Source of the DNA: Actinomycetota bacterium
Lineage (GTDB): Bacteria; Actinomycetota; Thermoleophilia; Solirubrobacterales; Solirubrobacteraceae
Direction: 5' to 3'
DNA: 64,000 nucleotides
Assembly (NCBI GenBank): GCA_005885515.1
Contig: VAWK01000022.1
Location: 27,562-91,561, forward strand
Shown: piece by piece, positions 4,585 through 58,487 of the stretch
How the letters are laid out: every line of letters starts with the position of its first letter
How positions within the stretch are numbered: position 1 is the first letter of the stretch
Notes under the pieces: generated by a model
Told to the model about the DNA's origin: nothing
Database searches by the model: none
The model's input: the letters and a program-made list of their open reading frames with translations, nothing else
Translations under genes and position numbers: made by a program

Positions 4585-5988
4585 CTACGCCGCCGCGCCC
4601 GGATCGAGCTCGACGCTCACGCCCGCGATCTGCAGCTCGTCTCCGGAGCGGAACCCCTCCGCCTGCAACGCGCGCAGCACACCGATCCGCCGCAGCCTCT
4701 CGGCCACGTAGGCCATCGCGTCCTCGTTCTCGATGTCATACCGGCCGACCAGCCGCTCGATCCCGGAGCCGTTGACCGCAAAGCTGCGCGGGCCCAACCG
4801 CTGCACGCTGAAGCCCGCCTGCGCGGCCGGGCGAAGCACCACGTGCTCGGCCAGCTCCTCCTCGGCCGCGCCGCCCGCGCCCGATCCCCCCACTCGCGCC
4901 GCGCCGGCAGCGCCCGTTGCCAGCGGACCGACCAGGCTGTCGCGTGCGTCTGCCCCGCCTGCGGCTCGCGCCGGGACCCTACGCTGCAGCTCGCCCGCCA
5001 GCTGTTCGATCCCCGCTCCGGTGGCGCTCGAAGTCGCGATCACCGGCACGTCCCCGCCGAGCCGCTGCTGCCACTCGGCGACCGCCGCGCAGGCACGCTC
5101 GGCGGTCACGAGATCGGCCTTGGACAGGGCCAGCACGCGCGGCAGTCGCGCGAGCCGCTCGTCGTGTGCCGCCAGCTCGCGCTCGATCGTTGCGTGGTTC
5201 GCGCGCGGGTCGCTGCCCTCGCCGGCCGACAGCTCGGGCGCCAGGTCGAGCACGTGCACCAGCAGGCTCGTGCGCTCGACGTGGGCGAGGAAGTCGTCTC
5301 CCAGCCCGGCGCCCTGGCTGGCGCCCTCGATCAGGCCGGGGATGTCAGCGACGACCAGCTGGCGCTCGTCGCCTTCGAGCACACCGAGCACCGGCGAGAG
5401 CGTCGTGAACGGATACTCGGCCACCTTGGGCACCGCACGCGTGAGACGAGCGAGCAGCGAGGACTTGCCCGCGTTAGGCATACCCACCAGACCCACGTCA
5501 GCAAGCAGCTTCAGTCGCAGCTCGAGCCAGCCCTCCTCGCCGGTCAGCCCGCGCTCTGCGAAGCGCGGCGCCTGGCGGGTGGCGGTGGCGAAGCGCTTGT
5601 TGCCCTTTCCCCCTGCGCCGCCCCGCGCAACCGTCGCCCGCTGACCGTGGGCGAGTAGCTCCCAGCGCCGGCCGGAGCGCTCGCCGGCCTCCTCACGCGA
5701 GTCGATCTCGGTGCCCGGCGGCACCGCGATCTCCAGGTCGGCGCCATTGGCGCCGTGGCGCAGCGCGCCGGCGCCGTTGCCGCCCCTGCCGGCGGCGTAG
5801 TGGCTGCGGCGGGCGACCGCCTGAAGGTCGCGCAGCGCCTCGTCGCACACGACGATCACCGCTCCTCCGCGGCCTCCGTCGCCGCCGTCGGGGCCGCCGC
5901 GCGGCACATGCGCTTCGCGGCGAAAGCTCGTGCCCCCATCGCCGCCGGCGCCCGCCCTGACATGAATTCTCGCGCGATCCTGGAGCAT
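4585..5988 (-). CDS. obg: GTPase Obg/CgtA with C-terminal OCT extension
   Basis: Gly-rich Obg fold (GGDGGTSFRRE, GGPDGGDGGRGG), G1 motif GMPNAGKSS and G3 motif DIPGLIEGA. Start ATG at 5988 chosen from homolog-like MLQDRARIHV. Confidence 0.9.
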   Translation of the reverse strand: MLQDRARIHVRAGAGGDGGTSFRREAHVPRGGPDGGDGGRGGAVIVVCDEALRDLQAVARRSHYAAGRGGNGAGALRHGANGADLEIAVPPGTEIDSREEAGERSGRRWELLAHGQRATVARGGAGGKGNKRFATATRQAPRFAERGLTGEEGWLELRLKLLADVGLVGMPNAGKSSLLARLTRAVPKVAEYPFTTLSPVLGVLEGDERQLVVADIPGLIEGASQGAGLGDDFLAHVERTSLLVHVLDLAPELSAGEGSDPRANHATIERELAAHDERLARLPRVLALSKADLVTAERACAAVAEWQQRLGGDVPVIATSSATGAGIEQLAGELQRRVPARAAGGADARDSLVGPLATGAAGAARVGGSGAGGAAEEELAEHVVLRPAAQAGFSVQRLGPRSFAVNGSGIERLVGRYDIENEDAMAYVAERLRRIGVLRALQAEGFRSGDELQIAGVSVELDPGAAA

Positions 5989-14186: not shown

Positions 14187-15139
14187 TTGCCCGTCGTGGC
14201 GGAGGCGAGCGCGCCCGTGCCGGCGGTCCCCGGCGCAGCGGTCTGGCCCGCCGGCAGGTTCGCGGCCAGCCCGCTGACCTTCGCCGGCGTGCTGCCCCGA
14301 ACCGAGGTCAGGACCTGGACCACGTCGAGGTTGTGCAGGTCGGCCAGCGGATGCACGTTGACCGAGCGGTAGGCGCTTTCTTCGTTCACCGAGGTCACCT
14401 GCCCGATCGGGATCCCGGGCGGGTACAGCGAGTCGTCGGGGCTCGACACCGTGCCCGAGGTGACCACGTAGTCGCCGCGGTTGGCCTGCGTGTTCGCGGG
14501 CAGGTACTGCAGCAGCAGGTCGTTGGGTGCGCCCACCTTGGGCTGCACGATGCCGGTCGCCGGCGTCGAGCCGAGCCGGGCCGAGACGCCCATCGTGGAG
14601 TCGGTTATGAGGCTCACCTGGGCGCCGTCGGAGGCCACCTGCGTGACCTTTCCGACCAGGCCTTCGCCGTTGATCACGGGGTCGTTGATGTGCACGCCGG
14701 CAGCTTCGCCTTTGTCGATCGTGACCGTCGAATACCAGATGTTGGGCGACTTGGCCACGACCGTCGCGGTGACCGGGTGGTAGTCGCTCACGCTGAGGCG
14801 ATTGTCCAGGCGGTACAGCGCCAGCAGTTCGCGGTAGGCGCTCCGTTCGGTCTGCTCGGCGATCACTTCGCGGCGCAGTTTGTCGACCTGCCTGACGAGC
14901 TGCTTGCGCTCGCTTTTGGCGTCCACCGTGTCGCCGATCCAGCCGAACGCGTCGCGCACGGGCTTCAGCGCCTTGTTGGCGCCGTCCTGGATCGGCGAGA
15001 GCACCGTCAGGAAGGCGCGCTGCACCGAGTGCAGCTGGCCACCCGCGGCCTCGCCGAAGTATGCGGTCAGGAGTATGAGGGAGAGCACAACGAGCAGCAG
15101 GAGTACCGCCCGCCGGCGCCGGACCGTCTTGTCATACAC
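14183..15139 (-). CDS. mreC: Rod shape-determining protein MreC
   Basis: N-terminal TM, coiled coil and beta-barrel region (INDPVINGEGLVGKV, VVTSG). Confidence 0.85.
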   Translation of the reverse strand: MYDKTVRRRRAVLLLLVVLSLILLTAYFGEAAGGQLHSVQRAFLTVLSPIQDGANKALKPVRDAFGWIGDTVDAKSERKQLVRQVDKLRREVIAEQTERSAYRELLALYRLDNRLSVSDYHPVTATVVAKSPNIWYSTVTIDKGEAAGVHINDPVINGEGLVGKVTQVASDGAQVSLITDSTMGVSARLGSTPATGIVQPKVGAPNDLLLQYLPANTQANRGDYVVTSGTVSSPDDSLYPPGIPIGQVTSVNEESAYRSVNVHPLADLHNLDVVQVLTSVRGSTPAKVSGLAANLPAGQTAAPGTAGTGALASATTGK

Positions 15140-15205
15140 GAATGGAGACCTTCCGAAGCGTTCAACGGCAAAGAGTACCCTCGGCCCGGCGGACCCGTCA
15201 CAGGC

Positions 15206-16444
<1,239 letters not shown>

Positions 16445-17056
16445 TCAACGGGCGCCGGAAGGCGCCCTCATCATCTGTCCTGGCAGCTCCGGGTAGATGT
16501 CCAGCAGGGTCGCCAGCGGCAGGCCGACGACGTTCTCATACTCGCCCCGCACGCCCCGCACGAGCGCCGCCCCGGCCCCCTGGATCGCGTAGCCGCCCGC
16601 GCGTCCGCGCCACTCGGACGTGGCCAGGTACCAGTCCAGCAGGCCGTCGTCCAGCGCGCGGAACGTGACCGCGGTGCGCGCCACCGCGCTGCGCTCCTCG
16701 CCCGCCACCAGCACCACCACCCCGCTCAGCACCTCGTGGGTGGCGCCGCTCAGCGCCTGAAGCGTCGCCCGCGCGGCGCGCTCGTGCGCGGGCTTGCCGT
16801 AGATCACCCCGTGCAGGCACACGATCGTGTCGCACCCGATCACCGCCTCCGCGGCGCCCGCCCTGCTGGCCGCCCGCGCCTTGCGCAGGGCGTTCTGCGC
16901 CGCCAGCCGCGCCGGGTCGCCCCGCGTCAGCTCGCCCACGCGCGCCGGGCGCACGCTGAATGGCACCCCCAGGCGCTCCAGGATCGCACACCGCTGCGGC
17001 GACGCCGACGCCAGCACCAGCTGGGGGGGCTCGGGCGGCGCGCGCCTAGCGGCCAA
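16445..17056 (-). CDS. maf: Maf-like nucleoside triphosphate pyrophosphatase
   Basis: Motifs [15 protein letters not shown] and GGYAIQG. Confidence 0.85.
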
Positions 17057-17456
17057 GCTCGGGGAAGAACAGCGCCGACTCGCGCGCCGCGGACTCTGGC
17101 GAGTCGGAGCCGTGGACCATGTTCTGACCGACCTGGAGCGCGAAATCGCCGCGGATGGAGCCGCTCCCGGCCTGCAGCGGATCGGTCGCGCCGATCACCT
17201 GGCGCGCCGCGCTGACCGCGTGCTCGCCCTCGAGCACCAGCGCCACGATCGGACCCGAGGTGATGAACTGCACGAGCTCGCCGAAGAACGGCCGCTCGGC
17301 GTGCTCGGCGTAGTGGCGCTCGGCCAGCTCCTGCTCCACGGTCATGTGGCGCAGCGCGACGATCTTCAGCCCCTTGCGCTCGAAGCGCGCGATTATCTCC
17401 CCGGTGAGCCCGCGCGCGAACGCGTCCGGCTTGACGAGGATCAGCGTTCGCTCCAT
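17046..17456 (-). CDS. ndk: Nucleoside diphosphate kinase
   Basis: Starts [13 protein letters not shown] and has active-site NMVHGSDS. Confidence 0.95.
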
Positions 17457-26326: not shown

Positions 26327-27664
26327 GTGACGATCGCGTTGTTGATACTCGCGCTGCTCGTGGGCGCCGCGTGCGCCGCCGCGCTGGCCCGCCGCCGCCA
26401 GGCCCGGCGCGACGCCGAGCGGCTGCAGGAGCGCCAGCGGATCCGCGACGAGCTCAAGTCGATCTCCGTGGACGTGCTCGCACAGACCGGCGCCTCGCTC
26501 GCGCAGCGGCTGGAGGACCAGCGCCGCGCCGAGCAGGAGCGCGCGGCCGGCGAGATGGCCAGCCGCGCGGCGGAGATCAAGGGGCTGATGCGCCCGGTGC
26601 AGGAGAAGCTGGGCAGGATGGAGAGCGAGATCGGCCGGCTCGAGCGCGAGCGGCGGCAGGCGCAGGGTGAGCTCGCGCAGATGCTGCGCCAGCTCGGCGA
26701 CGGCGTGGGCACGCTGCGTCAGGAGACGGGCAACCTCGTGTCGGCGCTGAAGCGGCCCGCCACCCGCGGCTCGTGGGGAGAGATCCAGCTGCGCAACGTG
26801 GTCGAGATGGCCGGCATGGTGTCCCACTGCGACTTCCTGGAGCAGAGCGCGATCGCGACCGATGACGGCTCGCTGCGCCCCGACATGCTCGTACGACTGC
26901 CGGGGGGCAAGCTCGTGGTCGTCGACTCCAAGGTGCCGCTCGACGCGTACCTGTCGGCGCTCGAGGCGGCAGACGAGGACGAGCGTGAGCTGCACATCGC
27001 GCGACACGCCAAGCAGACGCGCGAGCACATCGGCAAGCTGGCGGCCAAGAGCTACAGCGGGCAGCTCGACTGCACACCCGAGTTCGTCGTCATGTTCGTG
27101 CCCTCCGACGGCATCTATCAGGCCGCGCTCGCCGCCGACCCGGCGCTGATCGAGCACGGCGTGCAGCAGCACGTGCTGCTCGCCACCCCGACCACGCTGA
27201 TCGGGCTGCTGTGGGCGGTGCACTACGGCTGGCGCCAGGAGCTGATCGCCGAGTCGGCGCGCGAGATCGCCGACGCGGCGCGCGAGCTGCACCGCCGGCT
27301 GGGCCGCTTCTCGGAGCCGCTGGCCAAGGTCGGCCGGCAGCTGGACTCGGCGGTAGGCGCCTACAACGAGGCGGTCGGCTCCTTCGACCATCGCGTCGTG
27401 CCACAGGTGCGACGCATCGAGCAGGCGGGCGCCGCCTCCGAGCGCGAGGTGCTCGCGCCGCCGGCCGTGGAGAGCAGCGCGCGTCCGCTCACCGCGCGGC
27501 TTCAGTCCGATCCGCACGCGCGGGCGGGGCAGGGTCCCGCGCTCGTGCCGGCGGCGCCGGCGCAGGCCAGCCCCGCCGATGACGAGCAGGCTCCGCCGCG
27601 GCTGGAGCTGGCTGCCAGCGAGCCGGACGCCGGCGGCGGCGAGCGGCGAGCACGAGCAAGGTGA
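26327..27664 (+). CDS. rmuC: DNA recombination protein RmuC
   Basis: N-terminal TM, coiled coil and RmuC core (LKRPATRGSWGEIQLRNVVEMAG, VMFVPSDG). A GTG at 26327 gives an MTIALLILALL start; the track ORF starts at 26240. Confidence 0.85.
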   Translation: MTIALLILALLVGAACAAALARRRQARRDAERLQERQRIRDELKSISVDVLAQTGASLAQRLEDQRRAEQERAAGEMASRAAEIKGLMRPVQEKLGRMESEIGRLERERRQAQGELAQMLRQLGDGVGTLRQETGNLVSALKRPATRGSWGEIQLRNVVEMAGMVSHCDFLEQSAIATDDGSLRPDMLVRLPGGKLVVVDSKVPLDAYLSALEAADEDERELHIARHAKQTREHIGKLAAKSYSGQLDCTPEFVVMFVPSDGIYQAALAADPALIEHGVQQHVLLATPTTLIGLLWAVHYGWRQELIAESAREIADAARELHRRLGRFSEPLAKVGRQLDSAVGAYNEAVGSFDHRVVPQVRRIEQAGAASEREVLAPPAVESSARPLTARLQSDPHARAGQGPALVPAAPAQASPADDEQAPPRLELAASEPDAGGGERRARAR

Positions 27665-28448
27665 GCGCCACCGGCACGGTGGCCGGCAGCTCGTCGACGA
27701 GGAAGAACAGCAGGTCAAAGCACACCGCCAGCAGCGCCGTGAGCGCGGCGGCGCGACGCTGCACCGCGCCTCCGGCCGCGAACGCCAGCAGGCCGCCGAG
27801 CGCCGCGGCGGCGAACAGATCGCCGTAGCCCATGACCGCGCGGCCGAAGGCCGCGCTCTGCAGACGCGGCAGGCCGGCGGCGGGGTGGGCGGCGTTCAAG
27901 GCGTTGTTCGGCTTCTGCAGCAGATCGGACACCACCAGGGCGGTGTCAGCGGCCGCCATCGCGACGATGCCCGCGGCCAGCCAGCGAGGGGGGGTCACCC
28001 ACGCCAGCAGCGTGCCCAGCGCCACGCAGCTCAGCGAGGTCAGCACCACCGCTGCGGCCTCGCCGGCCAGGCCGCCGCGGTCGGCCCACGCGAGCGCGAA
28101 CAGCGCCGCCACGGCCGCCGCCACGAGCGCTCCGCGGCGGCGCGGCGACCACCAGCTCAGGGCCAACAGCGCGAGCATGGGAACCGCCACCAGGGCCACG
28201 TACGTGAGCGCCTGCGCGCTCGCCCTCTGCGCGGCCGTGGCGACGAACACGAACACGAGCACCGACGCCGGCGGGATCGCGGCCCAGCCGCGCGCCTTCA
28301 GTCGCGCGCGCAGCGCGGCGGCGCCAGGCCACGCCGGGTGGGCAGTGCGCGGAGGGGCGGCGAGCGCGCGCGGCATCGCCACCACGGCGCCCTGCACGAG
28401 GGACAGCACGCCGATCGAGATCCAGAATGGAGCCACGGCCTTCAACAT
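27489..28448 (-). CDS. Polytopic membrane protein with presenilin/SPP-like motif order (D, GxGD, PA-x)
   Basis: ATG at 28448 (MLKAVAPFWISIG). There are about 8-9 hydrophobic segments, with IVAMAAADTALVV, then VMGYGDLFAAAALGG, then DELPATVPVAL. The upstream part of the 556-aa track ORF is antisense to the DsbA-like gene. Confidence 0.6.
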   Translation of the reverse strand: MLKAVAPFWISIGVLSLVQGAVVAMPRALAAPPRTAHPAWPGAAALRARLKARGWAAIPPASVLVFVFVATAAQRASAQALTYVALVAVPMLALLALSWWSPRRRGALVAAAVAALFALAWADRGGLAGEAAAVVLTSLSCVALGTLLAWVTPPRWLAAGIVAMAAADTALVVSDLLQKPNNALNAAHPAAGLPRLQSAAFGRAVMGYGDLFAAAALGGLLAFAAGGAVQRRAAALTALLAVCFDLLFFLVDELPATVPVALTLLVLAARRRRRPARWQPAPAAAEPARHRRGWPAPAPPARARDPAPPARADRTEAAR

Positions 28449-28454
28449 ACGCAC

Positions 28455-29189
28455 ATGAACGCCGCCCACCACCCCGCACCGCGCCCGCGGGCACGCCTGT
28501 ACCAGCTGGGCGCGCTGATCGTCACCGCCACAGCCGTCACGGCCGTGCTGGTGGCGGTCCTCACCGCCGGCAGCACCTCGCAGCTCGCGCCCGGCAAGCC
28601 GGTGCCGGGCGCGCGGCAGACGCTGGCGCTGCTCGCCGGCATCCCCCAGCACGGGATCGCGCTGGGCGACCCGCGCGCGCCGGTCACGCTGGTCGAGTTC
28701 GGCGATTTGCAGTGCCCGACCTGCGCCCAGTTCGCGACCGGCGCGCTGCCGGCGATCGTCACCCGCTACGTGCGCAGCGGCCGCGTGCTGCTCGTCTACC
28801 GCGGGCTCGATCTGATCGGCGCCGACTCGCGCCGCGCCGCGCAGATGGCGGCCGCGCTGGCCCAGCAGGACCGGCTGTGGCAGTTCGTCGAGCTCGCCTA
28901 TCGCAACCAGGGGCTCGAGAACAGCGGCTATGTCACCGACACCTACCTGCAGGCGCTCGCCGCGGCGATCCCGGGCGTGAACCTCGGGCGCGCGCTCGCC
29001 GCGCGCAGCTCCCCGGCCGCGCGCGCCCAGCTCGCCGAAGCGCGCGCGCTCGCACGCCAGGCGCACGTCTCCTCGACGCCCGCGTTTGAGCTCTCGCGCC
29101 CCGGCCAGCCGCCGCGACGCTTCTCCCCGCCGGGGATCGACGCCGCCTCGTTCAGCCACGCGCTCGACGCCGCGCTCGCGGGCGCCTGA
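28455..29189 (+). CDS. DsbA-family thiol:disulfide oxidoreductase, membrane anchored
   Basis: TM anchor LGALIVTATAVTAVLVAVL and thioredoxin-fold active site FGDLQCPTCAQF. Confidence 0.8.
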   Translation: MNAAHHPAPRPRARLYQLGALIVTATAVTAVLVAVLTAGSTSQLAPGKPVPGARQTLALLAGIPQHGIALGDPRAPVTLVEFGDLQCPTCAQFATGALPAIVTRYVRSGRVLLVYRGLDLIGADSRRAAQMAAALAQQDRLWQFVELAYRNQGLENSGYVTDTYLQALAAAIPGVNLGRALAARSSPAARAQLAEARALARQAHVSSTPAFELSRPGQPPRRFSPPGIDAASFSHALDAALAGA

Positions 29190-29218
29190 CGCCGGCCACG
29201 GGCGTACCTGACTGTACG

Positions 29219-30497
29219 ATGAGCAGCGTGAACGCGCCCGTCGCGCAGGCGCCGCCGATCCTGCATCTCTCCTCGGTCGTGGGCAGCCCGCTGCGCGATG
29301 CCGATGGCGAGCGGCTCGGCACGGCGGAGGACGTCATCGTTCGCCTCGGCGGCGCCGGCTACCCACCGATCACCGGCTTTCTAGTCAACGTTGCCGGGCG
29401 GACCTCCTATCTGGGGGTGGACCGCGTGTCGGACATCGGCGCCGGTGTTGCGCAAGGCCAAGCTCGACCTGCGCCGCTTCGAGCGCCGCCCCGACGAGGT
29501 GCTGCTGCGACGCGACGTGCTCGACCGGCAGCTGATCAACGTCGAGGGCGCCCGCCTGGTGCGGGCCAACGAGATCGAGCTGGCGCACCTCGGCGGCTCA
29601 TGGCGCGTGGTCGGCGTCGACACCGGCCCGCGCGGCGGCCTGCGCCGCCTGCTGCCCAAGCGGCTGGGCTCGCGCATCGCCACCGGCGAGTTCCTCGACT
29701 GGGCCGGCGTGGAGCCGTTCGTGGGACACGTGCCGACGGTGCGCCTGCGCGTGCCGCACCCAAAGCTGGCCAAGCTTCACCCGGCCCAGATCGCCGATCT
29801 CGTGGAGGCGGCGTCGCGGCGCGAGGGTGAGGAGATCATCCAGGCCGTCGGCGACGACGACCGCGAGCTCGAGGCGGACGTGTTCGAGGAGCTCGACGAC
29901 CACCACCAGCGCGAGTTCCTCGAGGACCGGACGGACGCCGAGATCGCCGAGATCGTGTCGCGCATGGCCCCCGACGACGCCGCCGACATCGTGGGCGAGC
30001 TCGACGAGGAGCGCCGCGAGCCGGTGCTCGCGCTGCTGCCCGTCAGCCACCGCGTCAAGGTGCGCGCGCTGCTCGGCTATGACCCGGCGGAGGCGGGCGG
30101 GCTGATGAGCCCCGATTTCCTGCTGCTCGGCCCCACGACCCCCGCCGCCGACGCGCTGCAGGCGGCGCGCCGCTCGACGATCGCGCCCGAGCTCCTTACG
30201 GTCGTCTTCGTCGCCTCGCCCGACGGCGCGCTGCAAGGCGCGGTGCCCGTCACGGCACTGCTGCGCGCCGAGCCGGCGCAGCGGCTGGAGGCACTGGTCA
30301 AGCACGAGATCCCGTGCCTGTCGCCGGATGCCTCCTTCGAGGAGGTCGCCCGGCTGATGGCCGACTACAACCTGACCGCGATCCCGGTGGCCGACGAGCA
30401 CGAGCGGATGGTCGGGGTCGTCACGGTCGATGACGTGCTCGAGGCGATGCTTCCGCGCGGCTGGCGGCGGCGCTTCGGGCTGTTGGGCGAGGACTGA
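29219..30497 (+). CDS. PRC-barrel / MgtE N-terminal domain / CBS-pair protein with no membrane domain; reading frame interrupted near 29444
   Basis: Frame 1 (from 29219) encodes a PRC-barrel-like LSSVVGSPLRDADGERLGTAEDVIV. Frame 2 (from about 29445) encodes LRKAKLDLRRFERR, the acidic MgtE-N helices (DAEIAEIVSRMAPDDAADIVGELDEERR) and two CBS motifs. Confidence 0.75.
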
Positions 30498-30536
30498 ATA
30501 GACTGCGGCGCGTGAGCGTGGCAAACGGACAGTTCG

Positions 30537-31832
30537 ATGGCGGTCCGAGTACCGTCCGCCATGCGCCGCCTCCGGTCGGTCACGTTCGGCCGGCCCCGGC
30601 TGCCTGCCCGGCTTAGCTCCCGGCGCGCACGCATCTTCGTTTTCCTCGGGCTGCTCGGGCCCGGCCTGATCGCCGCCAACGCCGGCAACGACGCAGGCGG
30701 CGTGGCCACCTACGCCTCGGCCGGCGCCAAGTACGGCTACGACCTGCTGTGGACGATCGTCCTGATCACGGTCTCGCTGGCGATCGTGCAGATGCTCGCG
30801 GCGCGGATGGGCACGGTCACCGGCAAGGGCCTGGCGGAGCTGATTCGCGAGGAGTACGGGATCCGCTGGTCGGTGCTCGCGACCAGCGCGGTGCTGGTCG
30901 CGAATCTCGGCATCTGCATCTCGGACTTCGTCGGCATCGGCGCCGCGCTCGGGCTGGCGGGCGTGCCTGCGCAGGTCACGGTGCCGATCGCGGCGCTCGG
31001 CATCTGGATGATCATCGTGCGCGGTTCCTACCGCAGCGCCGAGCGGATCTTCGTCTGGTTCACGATCCCGTTCTTCGCCTACCCGATCGCGGCGGTGCTC
31101 GCGCACCCCCGCTGGGGCGACGTCGGCAAGGCGGTCGTCGCGCCGCACCTGCACGCCAGCTCGTCGTATCTGTTGATCCTGATCGCGACGGCCGGCACGA
31201 CGATCACGCCGTACATGCAGCTGTACCTGCAGTCGGCGGTCGTCGAGCGGGGGGTGCGCGAGGAGGAGCGGGACCGCGAGGAGCGCGAGGCGATCTCCGG
31301 CGCGGTGTTCGCCAACCTGGTGGCCGCGTTCATCATCATCGCGACCGGCGCCACGCTGTTCGTGCACGGCGTGCACAGCATCTCCTCCGCCGGCGACGCG
31401 GCGCGCGCGCTGAAGCCGTTCGCCGGCCAGTACGCGGAGGCGCTGTTCGGGATCGGGCTGCTGGGCGCGAGCCTGCTGGCCGCCGCGATCCTGCCGATCG
31501 CCACCGCGTATGTCGGCTACGAGAAGGGCATCGGGCGCAGGCGCGAGGAGGCGCCGGTGTTCGTCAACCTGATCACGGGGATGATCGCGATCGGCGCCTT
31601 CGTGGCGATCATCCCGGGCGTGCCGGTGATCTCGCTGCTCGTGGGCGTGCAGGTGGTCAACGGGCTGTTGCTGCCCATCAACCTGTACTTCATCTGGAGG
31701 CTCGCGCGGTCGCCGCAGCTGATGGGCGAGCACCGTTCGCGCGGGCTGCTCGACGTCGCCACGGGCGTGACCGCCGCGGTCCTGTCGGCGCTGTCGCTCG
31801 CGCTGGTGGTGGTCACCGCGGCGGGTCTGTAG
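30537..31832 (+). CDS. NRAMP/SLC11-family transporter of the NRAMP-related (NRMT-like) type, lacking the canonical Asn/Met metal ligands
   Basis: GPGLIAANAGNDAGGVATYASAGAKYGYDLLW (DAGG in place of DPGN) and LIATAGTTITPYMQLYLQS (TTITPY in place of ATVMPH). The ORF is a 431-aa polytopic protein. Confidence 0.85.
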   Translation: MAVRVPSAMRRLRSVTFGRPRLPARLSSRRARIFVFLGLLGPGLIAANAGNDAGGVATYASAGAKYGYDLLWTIVLITVSLAIVQMLAARMGTVTGKGLAELIREEYGIRWSVLATSAVLVANLGICISDFVGIGAALGLAGVPAQVTVPIAALGIWMIIVRGSYRSAERIFVWFTIPFFAYPIAAVLAHPRWGDVGKAVVAPHLHASSSYLLILIATAGTTITPYMQLYLQSAVVERGVREEERDREEREAISGAVFANLVAAFIIIATGATLFVHGVHSISSAGDAARALKPFAGQYAEALFGIGLLGASLLAAAILPIATAYVGYEKGIGRRREEAPVFVNLITGMIAIGAFVAIIPGVPVISLLVGVQVVNGLLLPINLYFIWRLARSPQLMGEHRSRGLLDVATGVTAAVLSALSLALVVVTAAGL

Positions 31833-32859
31833 CCGATCCGACCGCCGGCTGCGCCGGCGCGGCCGGCACGCTCTCGCCAGCCACCAGCAGCGCAGCGCCG
31901 ATCGCCCCGCCTAGGTCGCCGAGCGCGGCCAGGTGCAGCTGCGGCGGGCGCGAGTCGATGAACAGGTGCGGCTGCATCGCGCGCGCGATGCGCCGGGCAT
32001 ACGGCTCGCCAAGCCTCACGCCGAGCCCGCCGCCGATGATCACGCACTCGATGTCCAGCACGTTGACGACCGAGGCGATGCCCGTCCCGAGGGCCCCGAC
32101 CGCGCGGTCGATGAGCTCCGCGGCAAGCTCGTCGTCGCGCTCGAGCGCCCGCGCCCAGATGCCGCTGGTTAGCCGCGTGCGCCGGTGCTCGCGCATGAGC
32201 TTGAAGAGGTCGGTCTTGCGGCCCTTCTCCTCGTGCAGCTTGCGCGCGCGGGCTTCCATCGCCGCGCGGCCCGCGTAGGCCTCCATGCAGCCGATTCGCC
32301 CGCAGGTGCAACGGGCGCCGTCCAGCTTTACGACGACGTGCCCGATCTCACCGGCGCCGCCGCGCCCGCGCCACACCTGGCCGTCGATGATCAGCCCGCC
32401 ACCGACGCCGGTCCCCCAGAACACTCCCAGCAGCGAGCGGTAGGGCCGTCCCGCCCCGAGCGCGAACTCGGCCGCGGTCGCCACCTGTACGTCGTTGCCC
32501 ACCCGCACCTCGCACCCGAGCGCCGCCTGCAGCGTTTCGCCCAGCGGGAACGACCCTTCCCAGCCGGGAAGGTTGCGGGCGCTGCGAACGCTGCTGCCTT
32601 CGATCGTCCCCGGCGAGCCCACCCCGACTCCGGCCAGCGCCGCGATCTCGACGCCGGCGCTGGCCGCCGCGTCGCGCAGCGCCGCCTCCATCTCGGCCGC
32701 CACATCCGCTGGCCCGCCGCTCGTGGGCGTTGCGCGGCGCGCGGAGCCGAGCACGTCGTGGTCGTCATCGACGATCGCCGCCTGGATCTTCGTGCCGCCG
32801 AGGTCGATCCCCCCGTGGATGGACATGGGGCTGATCATGGCAGACGCCTCCGGCGGCAA
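31813..32859 (-). CDS. ROK-family sugar kinase (glucokinase-like)
   Basis: ATP motif GIDLGGTKI and ROK zinc signature CTCGRIGCMEAY. Confidence 0.85.
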   Translation of the reverse strand: MPPEASAMISPMSIHGGIDLGGTKIQAAIVDDDHDVLGSARRATPTSGGPADVAAEMEAALRDAAASAGVEIAALAGVGVGSPGTIEGSSVRSARNLPGWEGSFPLGETLQAALGCEVRVGNDVQVATAAEFALGAGRPYRSLLGVFWGTGVGGGLIIDGQVWRGRGGAGEIGHVVVKLDGARCTCGRIGCMEAYAGRAAMEARARKLHEEKGRKTDLFKLMREHRRTRLTSGIWARALERDDELAAELIDRAVGALGTGIASVVNVLDIECVIIGGGLGVRLGEPYARRIARAMQPHLFIDSRPPQLHLAALGDLGGAIGAALLVAGESVPAAPAQPAVGSATDPPR

Positions 32860-52782: not shown

Positions 52783-52855
52783 AGCGGCGAACGGGTCTCG
52801 AACCCGTGACCTCGAGCTTGGGAAGCTCGCGCTCTACCAACTGAGCTACCGCCGC
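52783..52855 (-). tRNA. tRNA-Gly (anticodon CCC)
   Basis: Manual cloverleaf: acceptor GCGGCGG/TCGCCGC, D arm GCTC-AGTTGGTA-GAGC, anticodon arm CGAGC-TTCCCAA-GCTCG, T arm ACGGG-TTCGAGA-CCCGT, discriminator U. CCA is not encoded. Confidence 0.93.
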
Positions 52856-55620: not shown

Positions 55621-55938
55621 GTGAACGAGCAAGACTCAGGCGCCGAGCGCCACATAAACATCCATCTCTCCCCCGAGATCATGGGGGGTGTCTACGCGAA
55701 CTTCGCCAACGTCAGCCACTCCGACTACGAGTTCACGGTCACCTTCGCCCGCGTCGACCACGAGGTCGAGTCCGAGGAGGTGCCGGGCGTGGTCGTCGCG
55801 CGTGTGAATCTCTCGCCACGCTTCATGCGCGAGCTGATCGACGCGATGGAGGACAACTACTCCAAGTGGCGCACCCGCGAGGGCATCAAGAACCTGCCCG
55901 AGTACGGCGGGACGGAGGGTGGCTCAGAGGAGGAGTAG
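55621..55938 (+). CDS. DUF3467-like small acidic protein
   Basis: INIHLSPEIMGGVYANFANVSHSDYEFTVTFARVD. GTG start at 55621. Confidence 0.65.
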   Translation: MNEQDSGAERHINIHLSPEIMGGVYANFANVSHSDYEFTVTFARVDHEVESEEVPGVVVARVNLSPRFMRELIDAMEDNYSKWRTREGIKNLPEYGGTEGGSEEE

Positions 55939-55966
55939 CGCCCCGCGGCCGCTCAGAGCGACAGCA

Positions 55967-56698
55967 ATGAAGGTCGCGGTCATCTCTGACATCCACGGCA
56001 ACAAGCAGGCCTTCGAGGCCACGCTCGATGCGGTCGCCGCCAGCGACGCGGCCGAGCTGTGGTGCCTCGGCGATCTTGTGGGGTATGGCGCGGACCCGGA
56101 CGTGTGTGTGGAGCTCGCGCGCGAGCACACCGCCGTGTGCCTGGCCGGTAACCACGACCTCGCCGTCACCGGCGAGATCCCCCTGCGCGAGTTCTCTCGT
56201 GGCGCCAGCCTGGCGGCGCAATGGACCAGAGAGGTGATCGCGCCCGAAAACCTCGCCTTCCTGCAGACGCTGAGCCCGCAGGCGCAGGAGGGCATCGTCG
56301 GCCTCTACCACGCCAGCCCGCGCGACCCCGTTTGGGAGTACGTGCTCTCGACGCTGTTGGCCGAGCTGTGCCTGGACGAGCAGCGCCATCGCCTTTGCCT
56401 CGTCGGCCATTCGCACGTGGCGCTGTCGTTCACGCGCCGCGAGGGCGAGCTCGCGACCGGCGAGCCGCGGCGCGACGGCACGCGACTCGATCTCGCCGCC
56501 GGCGAATGGCTGATCAACCCGGGCAGCGTCGGCCAGCCTCGCGATGGCGATCCGCGCGCGTCGTGGCTGCTGCTCGACCTCGACGGGCTGACCGCTTCGT
56601 TCCTGCGCACCGACTACGACGTCGCCGGCGCCGCCGCGGCGATCCGCGCGGCGCGCCTGCCGGACTCGCTCGCCGAGCGCTTGGAGTACGGTCAGTGA
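55967..56698 (+). CDS. Calcineurin-like metallophosphoesterase (YfcE/MJ0936-like)
   Basis: Motifs VISDIHGN, GDLVGYG, GNHD and GHSH. Confidence 0.85.
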   Translation: MKVAVISDIHGNKQAFEATLDAVAASDAAELWCLGDLVGYGADPDVCVELAREHTAVCLAGNHDLAVTGEIPLREFSRGASLAAQWTREVIAPENLAFLQTLSPQAQEGIVGLYHASPRDPVWEYVLSTLLAELCLDEQRHRLCLVGHSHVALSFTRREGELATGEPRRDGTRLDLAAGEWLINPGSVGQPRDGDPRASWLLLDLDGLTASFLRTDYDVAGAAAAIRAARLPDSLAERLEYGQ

Positions 56699-56700
56699 GC

Positions 56701-57282
56701 ATGCGCGGCCGCAAATGGTCGATCCGGCGCGCCGGCTTCCTCGCCAGCGGCCTGCTCGGCGCAGGCGCGGCGCTGCTGGCCGCGTGCGGCGGCAGCGGCA
56801 AACTGATCCCGGTCGCCAACTCCGAACCGCTGCAGAAGGACTTCGAAGAAGTCGCGCGCGCCGCCGAAAGCGGCCACGGCAGCTGTACCGCAACCGAAGC
56901 GGCGCTGCGCAAGGCCGAGCAGGACTTCGGCGGGCTGCCCGCGAGCGTCGATCCCGGCCTGCGGCGGCGGCTGCGCGAAGGCATCGCCAAGCTGCGCGCC
57001 GACGCGCTCGAACTGTGCGTTCAGCCCGCGGTGTCGACCACGGCGACGACCGCGCCGCGCACGACCACGACCACCACCACGACGCCAACCAGCACGCAGA
57101 ACACGAGCACAGAAAACACGAGCACGCAGACCCCGCCCAACACCACCACCAACACCGGACCCGGCGGCGGCACGCCGGCCAACGAAGGCGAAGGCGAAGA
57201 AGCAGGCGCGCCCAAGCACAAGGGGAAGGCCGGCGAACCCGGCGCCGGCGGCGGCGCGGCGGGCGGAGAAGCGGGCAAATGA
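56701..57282 (+). CDS. Lipoprotein with Thr/Asn-rich and Gly/Glu-rich tail
   Basis: Lipobox LLAACGGSG, a helical domain, then the low-complexity stretch TTTTTTTTPTSTQNTSTENTSTQ. Its stop overlaps the kinase ATG. Confidence 0.6.
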   Translation: MRGRKWSIRRAGFLASGLLGAGAALLAACGGSGKLIPVANSEPLQKDFEEVARAAESGHGSCTATEAALRKAEQDFGGLPASVDPGLRRRLREGIAKLRADALELCVQPAVSTTATTAPRTTTTTTTTPTSTQNTSTENTSTQTPPNTTTNTGPGGGTPANEGEGEEAGAPKHKGKAGEPGAGGGAAGGEAGK

Positions 57283-58487
57283 GCGCCACCGAGATTGGCG
57301 GGCGATACCGGCTGGAAGGCCGGCTGGGCCACGGCGGGATGTCCACCGTGCACCGCGCCTTCGATGAGCGGCTGGAGCGCCAGGTGGCGGTCAAGCTGCT
57401 GGCGGAGCACCTCGCCGACGACCCCACCTTTGTTTCGCGATTCAAGCGCGAGGCCCAGGCGGCTGCGCGCCTGGTGCATCCCAACATCGTGCAGGTGTTC
57501 GACTCCGGCCAGGACGAGCTCACCGGCCAGTACTTCATCGTGATGGAGTACATCGAGGGTTCCTCGTGCGCCGAGATCCTGCGCGACGACGGCTGGGTGG
57601 AGGTCGAGGAGGCGATCTCGATCATCGCGCAGGCCTGCGAGGGGCTCCACTACGCCCACCGTCACGGCGTCGTGCACCGCGACGTCAAGCCCGGCAACCT
57701 CCTGCGCGCGCGCGAGGGCGAGGTCAAGCTGGCGGACTTCGGCATCGCCAAGGCGACCGAGCAGTCGAGCATCACGCAGGTCGGGTCGGTGCTGGGCACG
57801 GCGGCCTACCTGGCGCCCGAGCAGGCGCGCGGCGAGGAAGCCGGTCCCGCCGCCGACCTGTACGCGCTGGGCGTCGTCGCCTACCAGCTCATCTCCGGGC
57901 GGCTGCCATACGAGGCCACCTCGCTCACCGAGCTGGCGCTCAAGCAGCAGCAGGAGACGCCGGCGATGCTCGACACGCTCGTCGCAGCCGTGGGTCCGGA
58001 GCTCGCCGACGCGGTGGCGATCGCGCTGGCGCTCGATCCTCGCGACCGTTACGAGAGCGCCCGCGAAATGGGGCGCTCGCTCGCCGACGGCGCCAGCGGG
58101 ATCGCGCCAGACGGTCGCCGCCGGCCAGGCAGTGCCGCGCAGGAGACAGAGGCCACGAGCCTGCTGGCGCGGGATCGACCGCTCAGCGAAGCAACGCGCC
58201 AGCGCGGCGCCAGCCCGACCGTGGTCCCGCGCAGTCCCCGCCGGGGACCCCCGCGAGAGGCGGCGGTGGCCGGACCGTACCCGCCTGCTCGGGCGGCCAG
58301 GCGCGGCCGCGGACGGGGGCTGCTGCTGACAATGCTTGTCCTGCTGGTGCTCGCTGCGGGGATCGCCGCCGCGATCGTCGCCACGGCCCCCGGGCCTACC
58401 CGCGTGGTGCTGCGCAACGTCGTCTACTCCGACGTGGAGCACACCGCCAGCGCGCTCAAGCAGCTCGTTTCCGAAAACACAAAGTAG
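57279..58487 (+). CDS. Ser/Thr protein kinase with C-terminal TM and a short extracytoplasmic tail
   Basis: GHGGMSTV..VAVK, HRDVKPGNLL, DFGIA, APEQ, and TM LLLTMLVLLVLAAGIAAAIVA. Confidence 0.9.
   Translation: MSATEIGGRYRLEGRLGHGGMSTVHRAFDERLERQVAVKLLAEHLADDPTFVSRFKREAQAAARLVHPNIVQVFDSGQDELTGQYFIVMEYIEGSSCAEILRDDGWVEVEEAISIIAQACEGLHYAHRHGVVHRDVKPGNLLRAREGEVKLADFGIAKATEQSSITQVGSVLGTAAYLAPEQARGEEAGPAADLYALGVVAYQLISGRLPYEATSLTELALKQQQETPAMLDTLVAAVGPELADAVAIALALDPRDRYESAREMGRSLADGASGIAPDGRRRPGSAAQETEATSLLARDRPLSEATRQRGASPTVVPRSPRRGPPREAAVAGPYPPARAARRGRGRGLLLTMLVLLVLAAGIAAAIVATAPGPTRVVLRNVVYSDVEHTASALKQLVSENTK

Follow-up and report, generated by a model that had tools for sequence, protein, structure and literature searches.

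Transporters of the NrmT group were defined by Shin et al. (2014), who found that NrmT rescues Mg2+-transport-deficient B. subtilis and that a gene for an MgtE cytoplasmic domain adjoins most NrmT genes (PMC4072509). The NrmT proteins of C. acetobutylicum are Ca_c0685 and Ca_c3329. In the 'mgtE-nramp operons' of these authors the MgtE-cytoplasmic homologue lies upstream of the permease, and they speculated that the MgtE fragment provides cytoplasmic feedback regulation of NrmT (PMC4072509). Ramanadane et al. (2022) gave the metal-site signature of the clade, there called NRMT, as DxxG-TxxA/T; the Eggerthella lenta protein EleNRMT moves Mg2+ and Mn2+ uncoupled from H+, and T224 (studied as T224A) is critical for its Mg2+ transport (PMC8806188). 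Here we analyse a gene pair of this kind in a 64-kb stretch of a Solirubrobacteraceae genome (contig VAWK01000022.1, positions 27,562 to 91,561). The whole stretch is referred to as the window; its numbering is used throughout and its G+C content is ∼ 72%. The names of its closest database proteins point to the same group and to an uncultured actinobacterial metagenome assembly. The pair consists of an NRMT-type permease and, upstream of it, a pore-less MgtE-like protein that we call the sensor. We consider it likely that the locus is a copy of a conserved 'MgtE-like cytosolic protein + NRMT permease' module, which is here either inactivated or mis-assembled. The functions discussed below, namely sensing, transport by the permease and binding, are predictions from sequence. 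The initial annotation was not aware of any characterised arrangement of this sort; it was in fact reported by Shin et al. (2014), who also co-expressed the pair of A. capsulatum (PMC4072509). The pairing has been known since then, and the locus adds an uncultured Solirubrobacterales example that is probably defective or mis-assembled.

The permease and its metal site

The permease and the two motifs that form its metal site, in transmembrane helices (TM) 1 and 6, are located as follows.

30537–31832, forward strand: NRMT-clade SLC11-related permease, 431 amino acids (aa); Pfam Nramp E = 2.4e-83, EleNRMT (7qia) E = 1.3e-100
30678–30713, forward strand: TM1 metal-site motif NAGNDAGGVATY (D52, G55), aligned to D55/G58 of EleNRMT and to DPGN of DraNramp
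31191–31235, forward strand: TM6 metal-site motif AGTTITPYMQLYLQS (T221, T224, Y226), aligned to T224/A227/W229 of EleNRMT and to A/M/H of DraNramp

The Pfam match agrees with the 431-aa SLC11-type permease of the initial annotation. EleNRMT (PDB 7QIA) is by far its best structural relative, with 340 bits and 400 residues aligned at 44% identity. Structures of MntH proteins do not exceed 81 bits (E = 6e-22 for DraNramp, worse for the others) and the NRAT1 structure 8ont matches only at 7e-12; overall, E-values against canonical NRAMPs and NRAT1 range from 1e-9 to 1e-22, as opposed to 1e-100 for NRMT. The NCBIfam MntH model gives 150.8 bits, far short of its cut-off of 430. Judged by its sequence, the permease is a member of the NRMT clade, an SLC11 outgroup, as had been proposed.

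HMMER alignments to solved structures place NDAGG in TM1 of the permease over MDPGN of DraNramp, with D52 on the Asp and G55 on the Asn, and GTTITPY in TM6 over GATVMPH, such that T221, T224 and Y226 correspond to the Ala, the Met and the His. The substitutions that had been read from the sequence (Asn to Gly in TM1 with the Asp kept; Ala to Thr, Met to Thr and His to Tyr in TM6) are therefore correct, and they map to metal-site positions against both DraNramp and EleNRMT. The unwound stretch of TM1 (N-D52-A-G-G55) carries the DxxG of the NRMT clade and TM6 (T221-T-I-T224) its TxxA/T. The canonical NRAMP/MntH combination of DPGN with A/CxxMPH is not found, the permease having NDAGG and TTITPY instead, nor is the DxxN-AxxT motif of the plant Al3+ transporters (NRATs), since Gly replaces the Asn and Thr the first Ala of TM6. 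Thus the permease shares with DraNramp, ScaDMT and NRAT1 the LeuT-fold SLC11 architecture and the Asp of TM1, but its DxxG-TxxT differs from both the DxxN-AxxM of NRAMPs and the DxxN-AxxT of NRATs. Preference for soft metals is linked to the thioether of the Met, a residue that is missing from the site of the permease.

Compared with EleNRMT, the residues D55 and G58 (TM1 DxxG), T224 (first Thr of TM6) and Q379 (TM10) are unchanged, and an acidic residue is kept in TM3 (E133 to Asp). The two proteins differ at the Met position (Ala in EleNRMT, A227; Thr in the permease) and at the His position (Trp, W229; Tyr). Both have lost the histidines of TM6b: the MPHVIYLHS of DraNramp reads TPYMQLYLQS in the permease (His to Tyr, His to Gln). 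The loss of these proton-pathway residues is consistent with uncoupled transport. By homology to EleNRMT and the clostridial NrmT, the permease most likely imports Mg2+, and Mn2+ in addition.

The combination of Met to Thr and His to Tyr had been noted as a difference from the two characterised NRMTs; it is not unusual. Thr is part of the published signature DxxG-TxxA/T (PMC8806188). In representatives at 50% identity, A, T or S occupies the Met position, and W, Y or occasionally F is found at that of the His; T or S together with Y is common. A C. acetobutylicum NrmT paralogue retrieved by homology search (P0497) has NAGNDAGG and GTTITPY, identical to the window permease, at 44% identity overall. 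It lies 190 nucleotides (nt) downstream of an M-box riboswitch (152.9 bits) and, unlike the window permease, has no adjacent sensor; on these two grounds it is probably Ca_c3329. The statement that both characterised clostridial proteins carry Ala at the Met position is therefore doubtful.

The sensor is a cytosolic MgtE homologue without a pore

The upstream gene had been described as encoding a PRC barrel, an MgtE N-domain and a CBS pair. The MgtE_N and CBS domains are present as described, and a PRC barrel by a weaker match (below). They do not lie in a single open reading frame (ORF), because an 8-nt frameshift divides the gene into two parts.

29219–29443, forward strand: 5' part of the sensor gene (native residues 1–75), which holds the start codon and the first PRC barrel; frame of 29219, identical to the intact 428-aa orthologues up to A75
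29445–30497, forward strand: 3' part with second PRC barrel, MgtE_N, CBS pair, basic tail and stop codon; frame of the ORF 29391–30497
∼ 29775–30086, forward strand: MgtE_N (Pfam 8.2e-22)
∼ 30096–30452, forward strand: CBS pair (Pfam 1.2e-16)
30450–30494, forward strand: basic C-terminal tail LPRGWRRRFGLLGED, followed by the stop codon

From the equivalent of V79 in the intact protein onwards the 3' part has native sequence, and its stop codon (30497) is separated from the permease start by 39 nt, the spacing noted previously. The cytosolic domain of MgtE (PDB 2yvy) matches the sensor at 1.1e-26. TIGR00400 (MgtE), which has a cut-off of 232.75 bits, gives 112.9 and is covered at model positions 26–250 alone, in agreement with Pfam, the PDB comparison and Foldseek, and the absence of an MgtE pore from the neighbouring gene is thus confirmed. 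An AlphaFold2 model of the intact orthologue, which has a mean predicted local distance difference test score (pLDDT) of 63 from a shallow alignment and is fit for domain-level comparison but not for interdomain geometry, retrieved MgtE cytosolic domains as the best Foldseek matches (1.3e-15). The sensor is a homologue of the MgtE cytosolic domain that lacks the pore.

Pfam PRC matches residues 16–44 of the window sensor with 17.3 bits and residues 16–81 of the intact near-identical orthologue with 20.3 bits (cut-off 21.2), and the model of the latter has a beta-rich domain at 14–80 with a pLDDT of ∼ 80. PRC exceeds the Pfam gathering score in all 10 of 10 diverse sensor orthologues, in four of them over two stretches. 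The sensors examined are ∼ 413–440 aa long and all begin with two PRC barrels. A natural class of sensors without the first barrel, which would have made the truncated window product plausible, was considered and rejected: acidobacterial sensors, where tblastn matches begin only at residue ∼ 98, keep a divergent first PRC barrel. In the literature searched we found no paper on PRC barrels together with MgtE, and no description of the PRC barrels and basic tail of the sensor. With one exception, the 120 best database homologues measure 425–465 aa. The exception, P0271 (607 aa, 77% identity), scores 1005 bits compared with 921 for the self-match of the 428-aa protein, which suggests an internal duplication or fusion.

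Mg2+-site residues of T. thermophilus MgtE (PDB 2YVY/2ZY9) were taken from the literature (PMC5882242) and mapped onto an alignment of 43 sensors. The MgtE_N and CBS folds and the acidic ligands of the interdomain Mg4, Mg6 and Mg7 sites are common to both proteins. For Mg4/Mg6, D91 is Asp in 38 sensors, D95 is kept in 42 and D247 in 41; the position of E59 (Mg7) is acidic in 39 and that of D250 in 27. The sensor differs from MgtE in having no pore, in its two additional N-terminal PRC barrels and in the Asn at the position of D226 (Mg5), and it ends with a short basic tail where MgtE has its acidic plug helix (E255, E258 and D259). The window sensor follows this pattern: D91, D95 and D247 are kept, E59 is Asp, D250 is Glu, D226 is Asn and the plug-helix residues are Arg. 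In the ORF 29391–30497, the equivalent of D226 is N327. In experiments on MgtE, the site has been disabled by the double mutation D226N/D250A, of which D226N is one half.

Two deletions in the window copy

We compared the window with three metagenome contigs from two studies (L003, L004 and L005, the same as L086-88) that are 99.8% identical to it over up to 21.3 kb. Three indels were found in total, two of them coding; neither of the coding deletions had been recognised in the initial annotation.

29443/29444, forward strand: site of an 8-nt deletion; GACGGGGT is missing and the sensor frame is shifted (alignment with the three contigs)
31512/31513, forward strand: site of a 15-nt in-frame deletion with TCG microhomology on its flanks, by which TM8 loses VSESL (TCGTCTCCGAGTCGC) at its cytoplasmic end
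24112: single-base indel, a G missing relative to the three contigs; intergenic between tig (trigger factor) and usp by syntenic gene calls

All three contigs have the 8 extra bases and a continuous 428-aa sensor gene. In the window their loss shifts the frame after residue 75, and the ORF in the frame of 29219 continues as unrelated sequence to 29830. The sensor gene of the window is thus interrupted, whereas its orthologues (413–440 aa) are intact and, going by their lengths, none of the 120 best homologues carries the truncation. A programmed frameshift that would join the two frames was rejected, as the retrieved orthologues, including those with 99.8% identical DNA, have a single continuous ORF save for a few fragmentary loci in metagenome-assembled genomes (MAGs). 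In two Solirubrobacterales-type MAGs (L019 and L024) tblastn matches to the sensor are split across positions or frames. This suggests that frameshifts occur there as well, and faulty assembly may often be the cause when a sensor gene is broken in a MAG.

The three contigs also keep TCGTCTCCGAGTCGC, and the window permease is consequently 431 aa long instead of the 436 aa of its orthologues, with VSESL missing between ATAYV and GYEKG. The segment corresponds to ICEAF of EleNRMT, so that the window protein shows a five-residue gap relative to both EleNRMT and CabNrmT, and its 11-helix core has lost five residues at the end of TM8. Across the full-length 50%-identity representatives there is not a single gap at this site, and its Glu is almost invariant.

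Both coding indels lie within the gene pair, which makes up 12% of the length compared; the probability that both would strike it at random is ∼ 1.5% (about 0.015). Although the numbers are small, this points to a module that has really been inactivated in the strain. The deletions are probably either disabling or errors of assembly, and the module accordingly either inactivated in the strain or mis-assembled; the system as encoded in the window may be non-functional.

Conservation and regulation of the pairing

A census of the gene neighbourhood was made in 80 genomes of GTDB species representatives, in which the sensor was sought within 4 kb of the permease. It was found in 56 of the 80, nearly always upstream and on the same strand, mostly at a distance of a few hundred nt. 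Among the taxa are Solirubrobacterales, Acidobacteriota, Chloroflexota, Nitrospirota and Clostridia and two MAGs labelled archaeal; the pairing is conserved across phyla. Presence of the sensor varies with the TM6 motif: it accompanies 26/28 permeases with T..Y, 3/3 with S..Y, 23/39 with A..W and 4/10 with T..W. Taken together, 29 of the 31 T/S..Y loci have a sensor, a significant enrichment over the rest (Fisher's exact test, p = 3e-4).

In Firmicutes the two genes are Mg2+-co-regulated. In C. muellerianum, as in a MAG from Bacillota, an M-box (RF00380) precedes a sensor + NRMT operon with the same motif as the window permease. Together with the C. acetobutylicum paralogue described above, this gives three Firmicute loci in which the precise site signature GNDAGG/GTTITPY stands behind an M-box (L025, L057 and L089). 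The signature of the window permease is thus one that is tied to Mg2+-responsive regulation in Firmicutes. No M-box was found in the 13 non-Firmicute loci scanned. The operon of Ca_c0685 differs further from the window locus in that its sensor is split into two genes (PMC4072509); the window sensor is a single gene, broken by the frameshift. The C. muellerianum locus (L025) also contains a T-box leader (4876–5111, forward strand), which follows the NRMT gene at a distance of ∼ 1.1 kb, and at its edge a fragment of a group II intron (L025:1-52, reverse strand); neither appears related to the finding.

Genomic surroundings

The pair lies in a housekeeping region of the chromosome that is syntenic in related Solirubrobacterales. 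It is preceded by genes for ClpX, ClpP, trigger factor, Usp, LysR, RmuC, a membrane protein and a DsbA-like protein, and followed by a convergent ROK-family gene and genes for an SLT/M23 protein, SecG, CcmF and CcmE.

28455–29189, forward strand: DsbA-like (Thioredoxin_4) gene, ending 30 nt before the sensor start (gene calls; Pfam in syntenic contigs)
31813–32859, reverse strand: convergent ROK-family gene, overlapping the 3' end of the permease gene by 20 nt, an arrangement kept in related contigs
52783–52855, reverse strand: transfer RNA gene; nothing else in the window matches Rfam at gathering level

The DsbA-like gene is possibly co-transcribed with the pair. No sigma-70-like promoters or intrinsic terminators were found in 27400–32400, but at 72% GC such a search tells little. 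Control by an upstream riboswitch was considered and rejected after Rfam scans of the window and of 27400–30600. A 711-aa antisense ORF (29598–31733, reverse strand) and others such as 30749–32278 (forward strand) were dismissed as high-GC artefacts, no gene being called there in the syntenic contigs. Two further long ORFs, 14333–17215 (forward strand, 960 aa) and 55886–57625 (reverse strand, 579 aa), have no Pfam match at 1e-5; they may be uncharacterised genes or by-products of the high GC content.

Discussion

In an intact copy of the module, the permease would import Mg2+ (and Mn2+) as a largely hydrated ion, driven by the membrane potential and with no proton coupling. The upstream protein is most likely a cytosolic divalent-cation sensor, whose N/CBS interface would close at high cytosolic Mg2+ and so restrain the permease in trans; it would possibly dock on the permease via its PRC barrels and basic tail. 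We speculate that PRC-PRC-MgtE_N-CBS is a detachable, Mg2+-dependent gate of NRMT permeases, in which the Mg2+ sites between N and CBS domains act as the switch and the PRC barrels and basic tail as the docking elements. This is a tentative suggestion, to which we would give somewhat less than an even chance. Regulation in trans is a prediction, which was published as a speculation in 2014.

Several observations weigh against such a Mg2+-regulated pair. In the one co-expression experiment, carried out with the A. capsulatum proteins, the fragment Acp2976 was without effect on rescue, and the A. capsulatum permease behaved mainly as a Mn2+ transporter (PMC4072509). A brake exerted by the sensor would, however, have been invisible to that assay, since it scored only a gain of growth at low Mg2+. 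No sensor was detected within 4 kb in 24 of the 80 NRMT loci (a few of which have little flanking sequence), and the sensor is therefore not obligatory. In contrast to the clostridial systems, the window locus has no M-box; a scan of the window at the Rfam gathering threshold, and one of 27400–30600 at E ≤ 1, detected neither it nor any other riboswitch. The D226 (Mg5) position is Asn in 40 of the 43 sensors aligned, and the acidic sites of the plug helix are gone altogether, E255, E258 and D259 being swapped for the conserved basic tail (WRRRF, SRKKRRK) that ends the sensor.

Some of these points suit other accounts of the pair. The permease could be mainly an importer of Mn2+ or another transition metal, and the MgtE-like protein could sense, for example, Mn2+ or, through its CBS pair, adenine nucleotides. 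The NrmT-type gene that stands beside an MgtE fragment in A. capsulatum fully rescued a deficiency in Mn2+ transport but only partly one in Mg2+ transport (PMC4072509), EleNRMT also carries Mn2+ (PMC8806188), and the missing M-box and the Asn at the Mg5 site would fit as well. We nevertheless think this rather unlikely: GNDAGG/GTTITPY stands behind Mg2+-sensing M-boxes in three Firmicute loci, the permease lacks the Met whose thioether favours soft metals, and Thr221, whose equivalent T224 is needed for Mg2+ transport by EleNRMT, is kept. It is also conceivable, if improbable, that the MgtE-like protein has no regulatory effect on the permease and is an independent CBS-domain protein or a metal chaperone that merely shares the operon. 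The lack of an effect on Mg2+ rescue in B. subtilis on co-expression (PMC4072509) would be expected in that case, as would the ∼ 30% of NRMT loci without a detected sensor within 4 kb, the M-box-controlled C. acetobutylicum paralogue among them. Mere co-residence accounts less well for the tight same-strand adjacency of the two genes in several bacterial phyla and in the two MAGs labelled archaeal, for their joint placement behind a single M-box, for the correlation of sensor presence with the permease subclade, and for the retention of the Mg ligands at the N/CBS interface while the conserved basic tail takes the place of the plug helix.

A separate question is whether the deletions exist in the organism. 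They may be artefacts that arose in the assembly or consensus of the MAG, in which case the sensor of the organism would be intact and functional and its permease 436 aa long. Both genes are intact in the three independent 99.8%-identical contigs from two studies. Besides the deletions the window sensor gene shows at most one amino acid change (P/A) relative to them and hence no further sign of decay. The fragmented sensor matches in L019 and L024 resemble assembly frameshifts. On the other side stand the concentration of the only two coding indels in the gene pair, with its low random probability, and the TCG microhomology around the 15-nt deletion, as in slippage deletions. Public databases also hold a 431-aa protein with the deletion; since this entry probably derives from the same assembly, it does not count as independent evidence. 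An artefact is accordingly a serious possibility, to which we would give a smaller share than to its opposite.

For the copy of the module in the window, the result matters little, as it is one more example of the gene pair of 2014 and possibly a defective one. The features brought together here, namely the double PRC barrel, the near-invariant Mg4/Mg6 ligands, the Asn at the Mg5 site, the basic tail and the presence of a sensor in 29/31 T/S..Y loci, could help in probing the role of the MgtE-like protein. That role, a matter that is not specific to this locus, bears on how an uncoupled Mg2+ uniporter avoids overloading the cell. If the idea of a detachable gate is true, two unrelated folds of Mg2+ transporters would share one regulatory module in evolution, and the joint loss of both genes in this strain would reflect their working as one unit.

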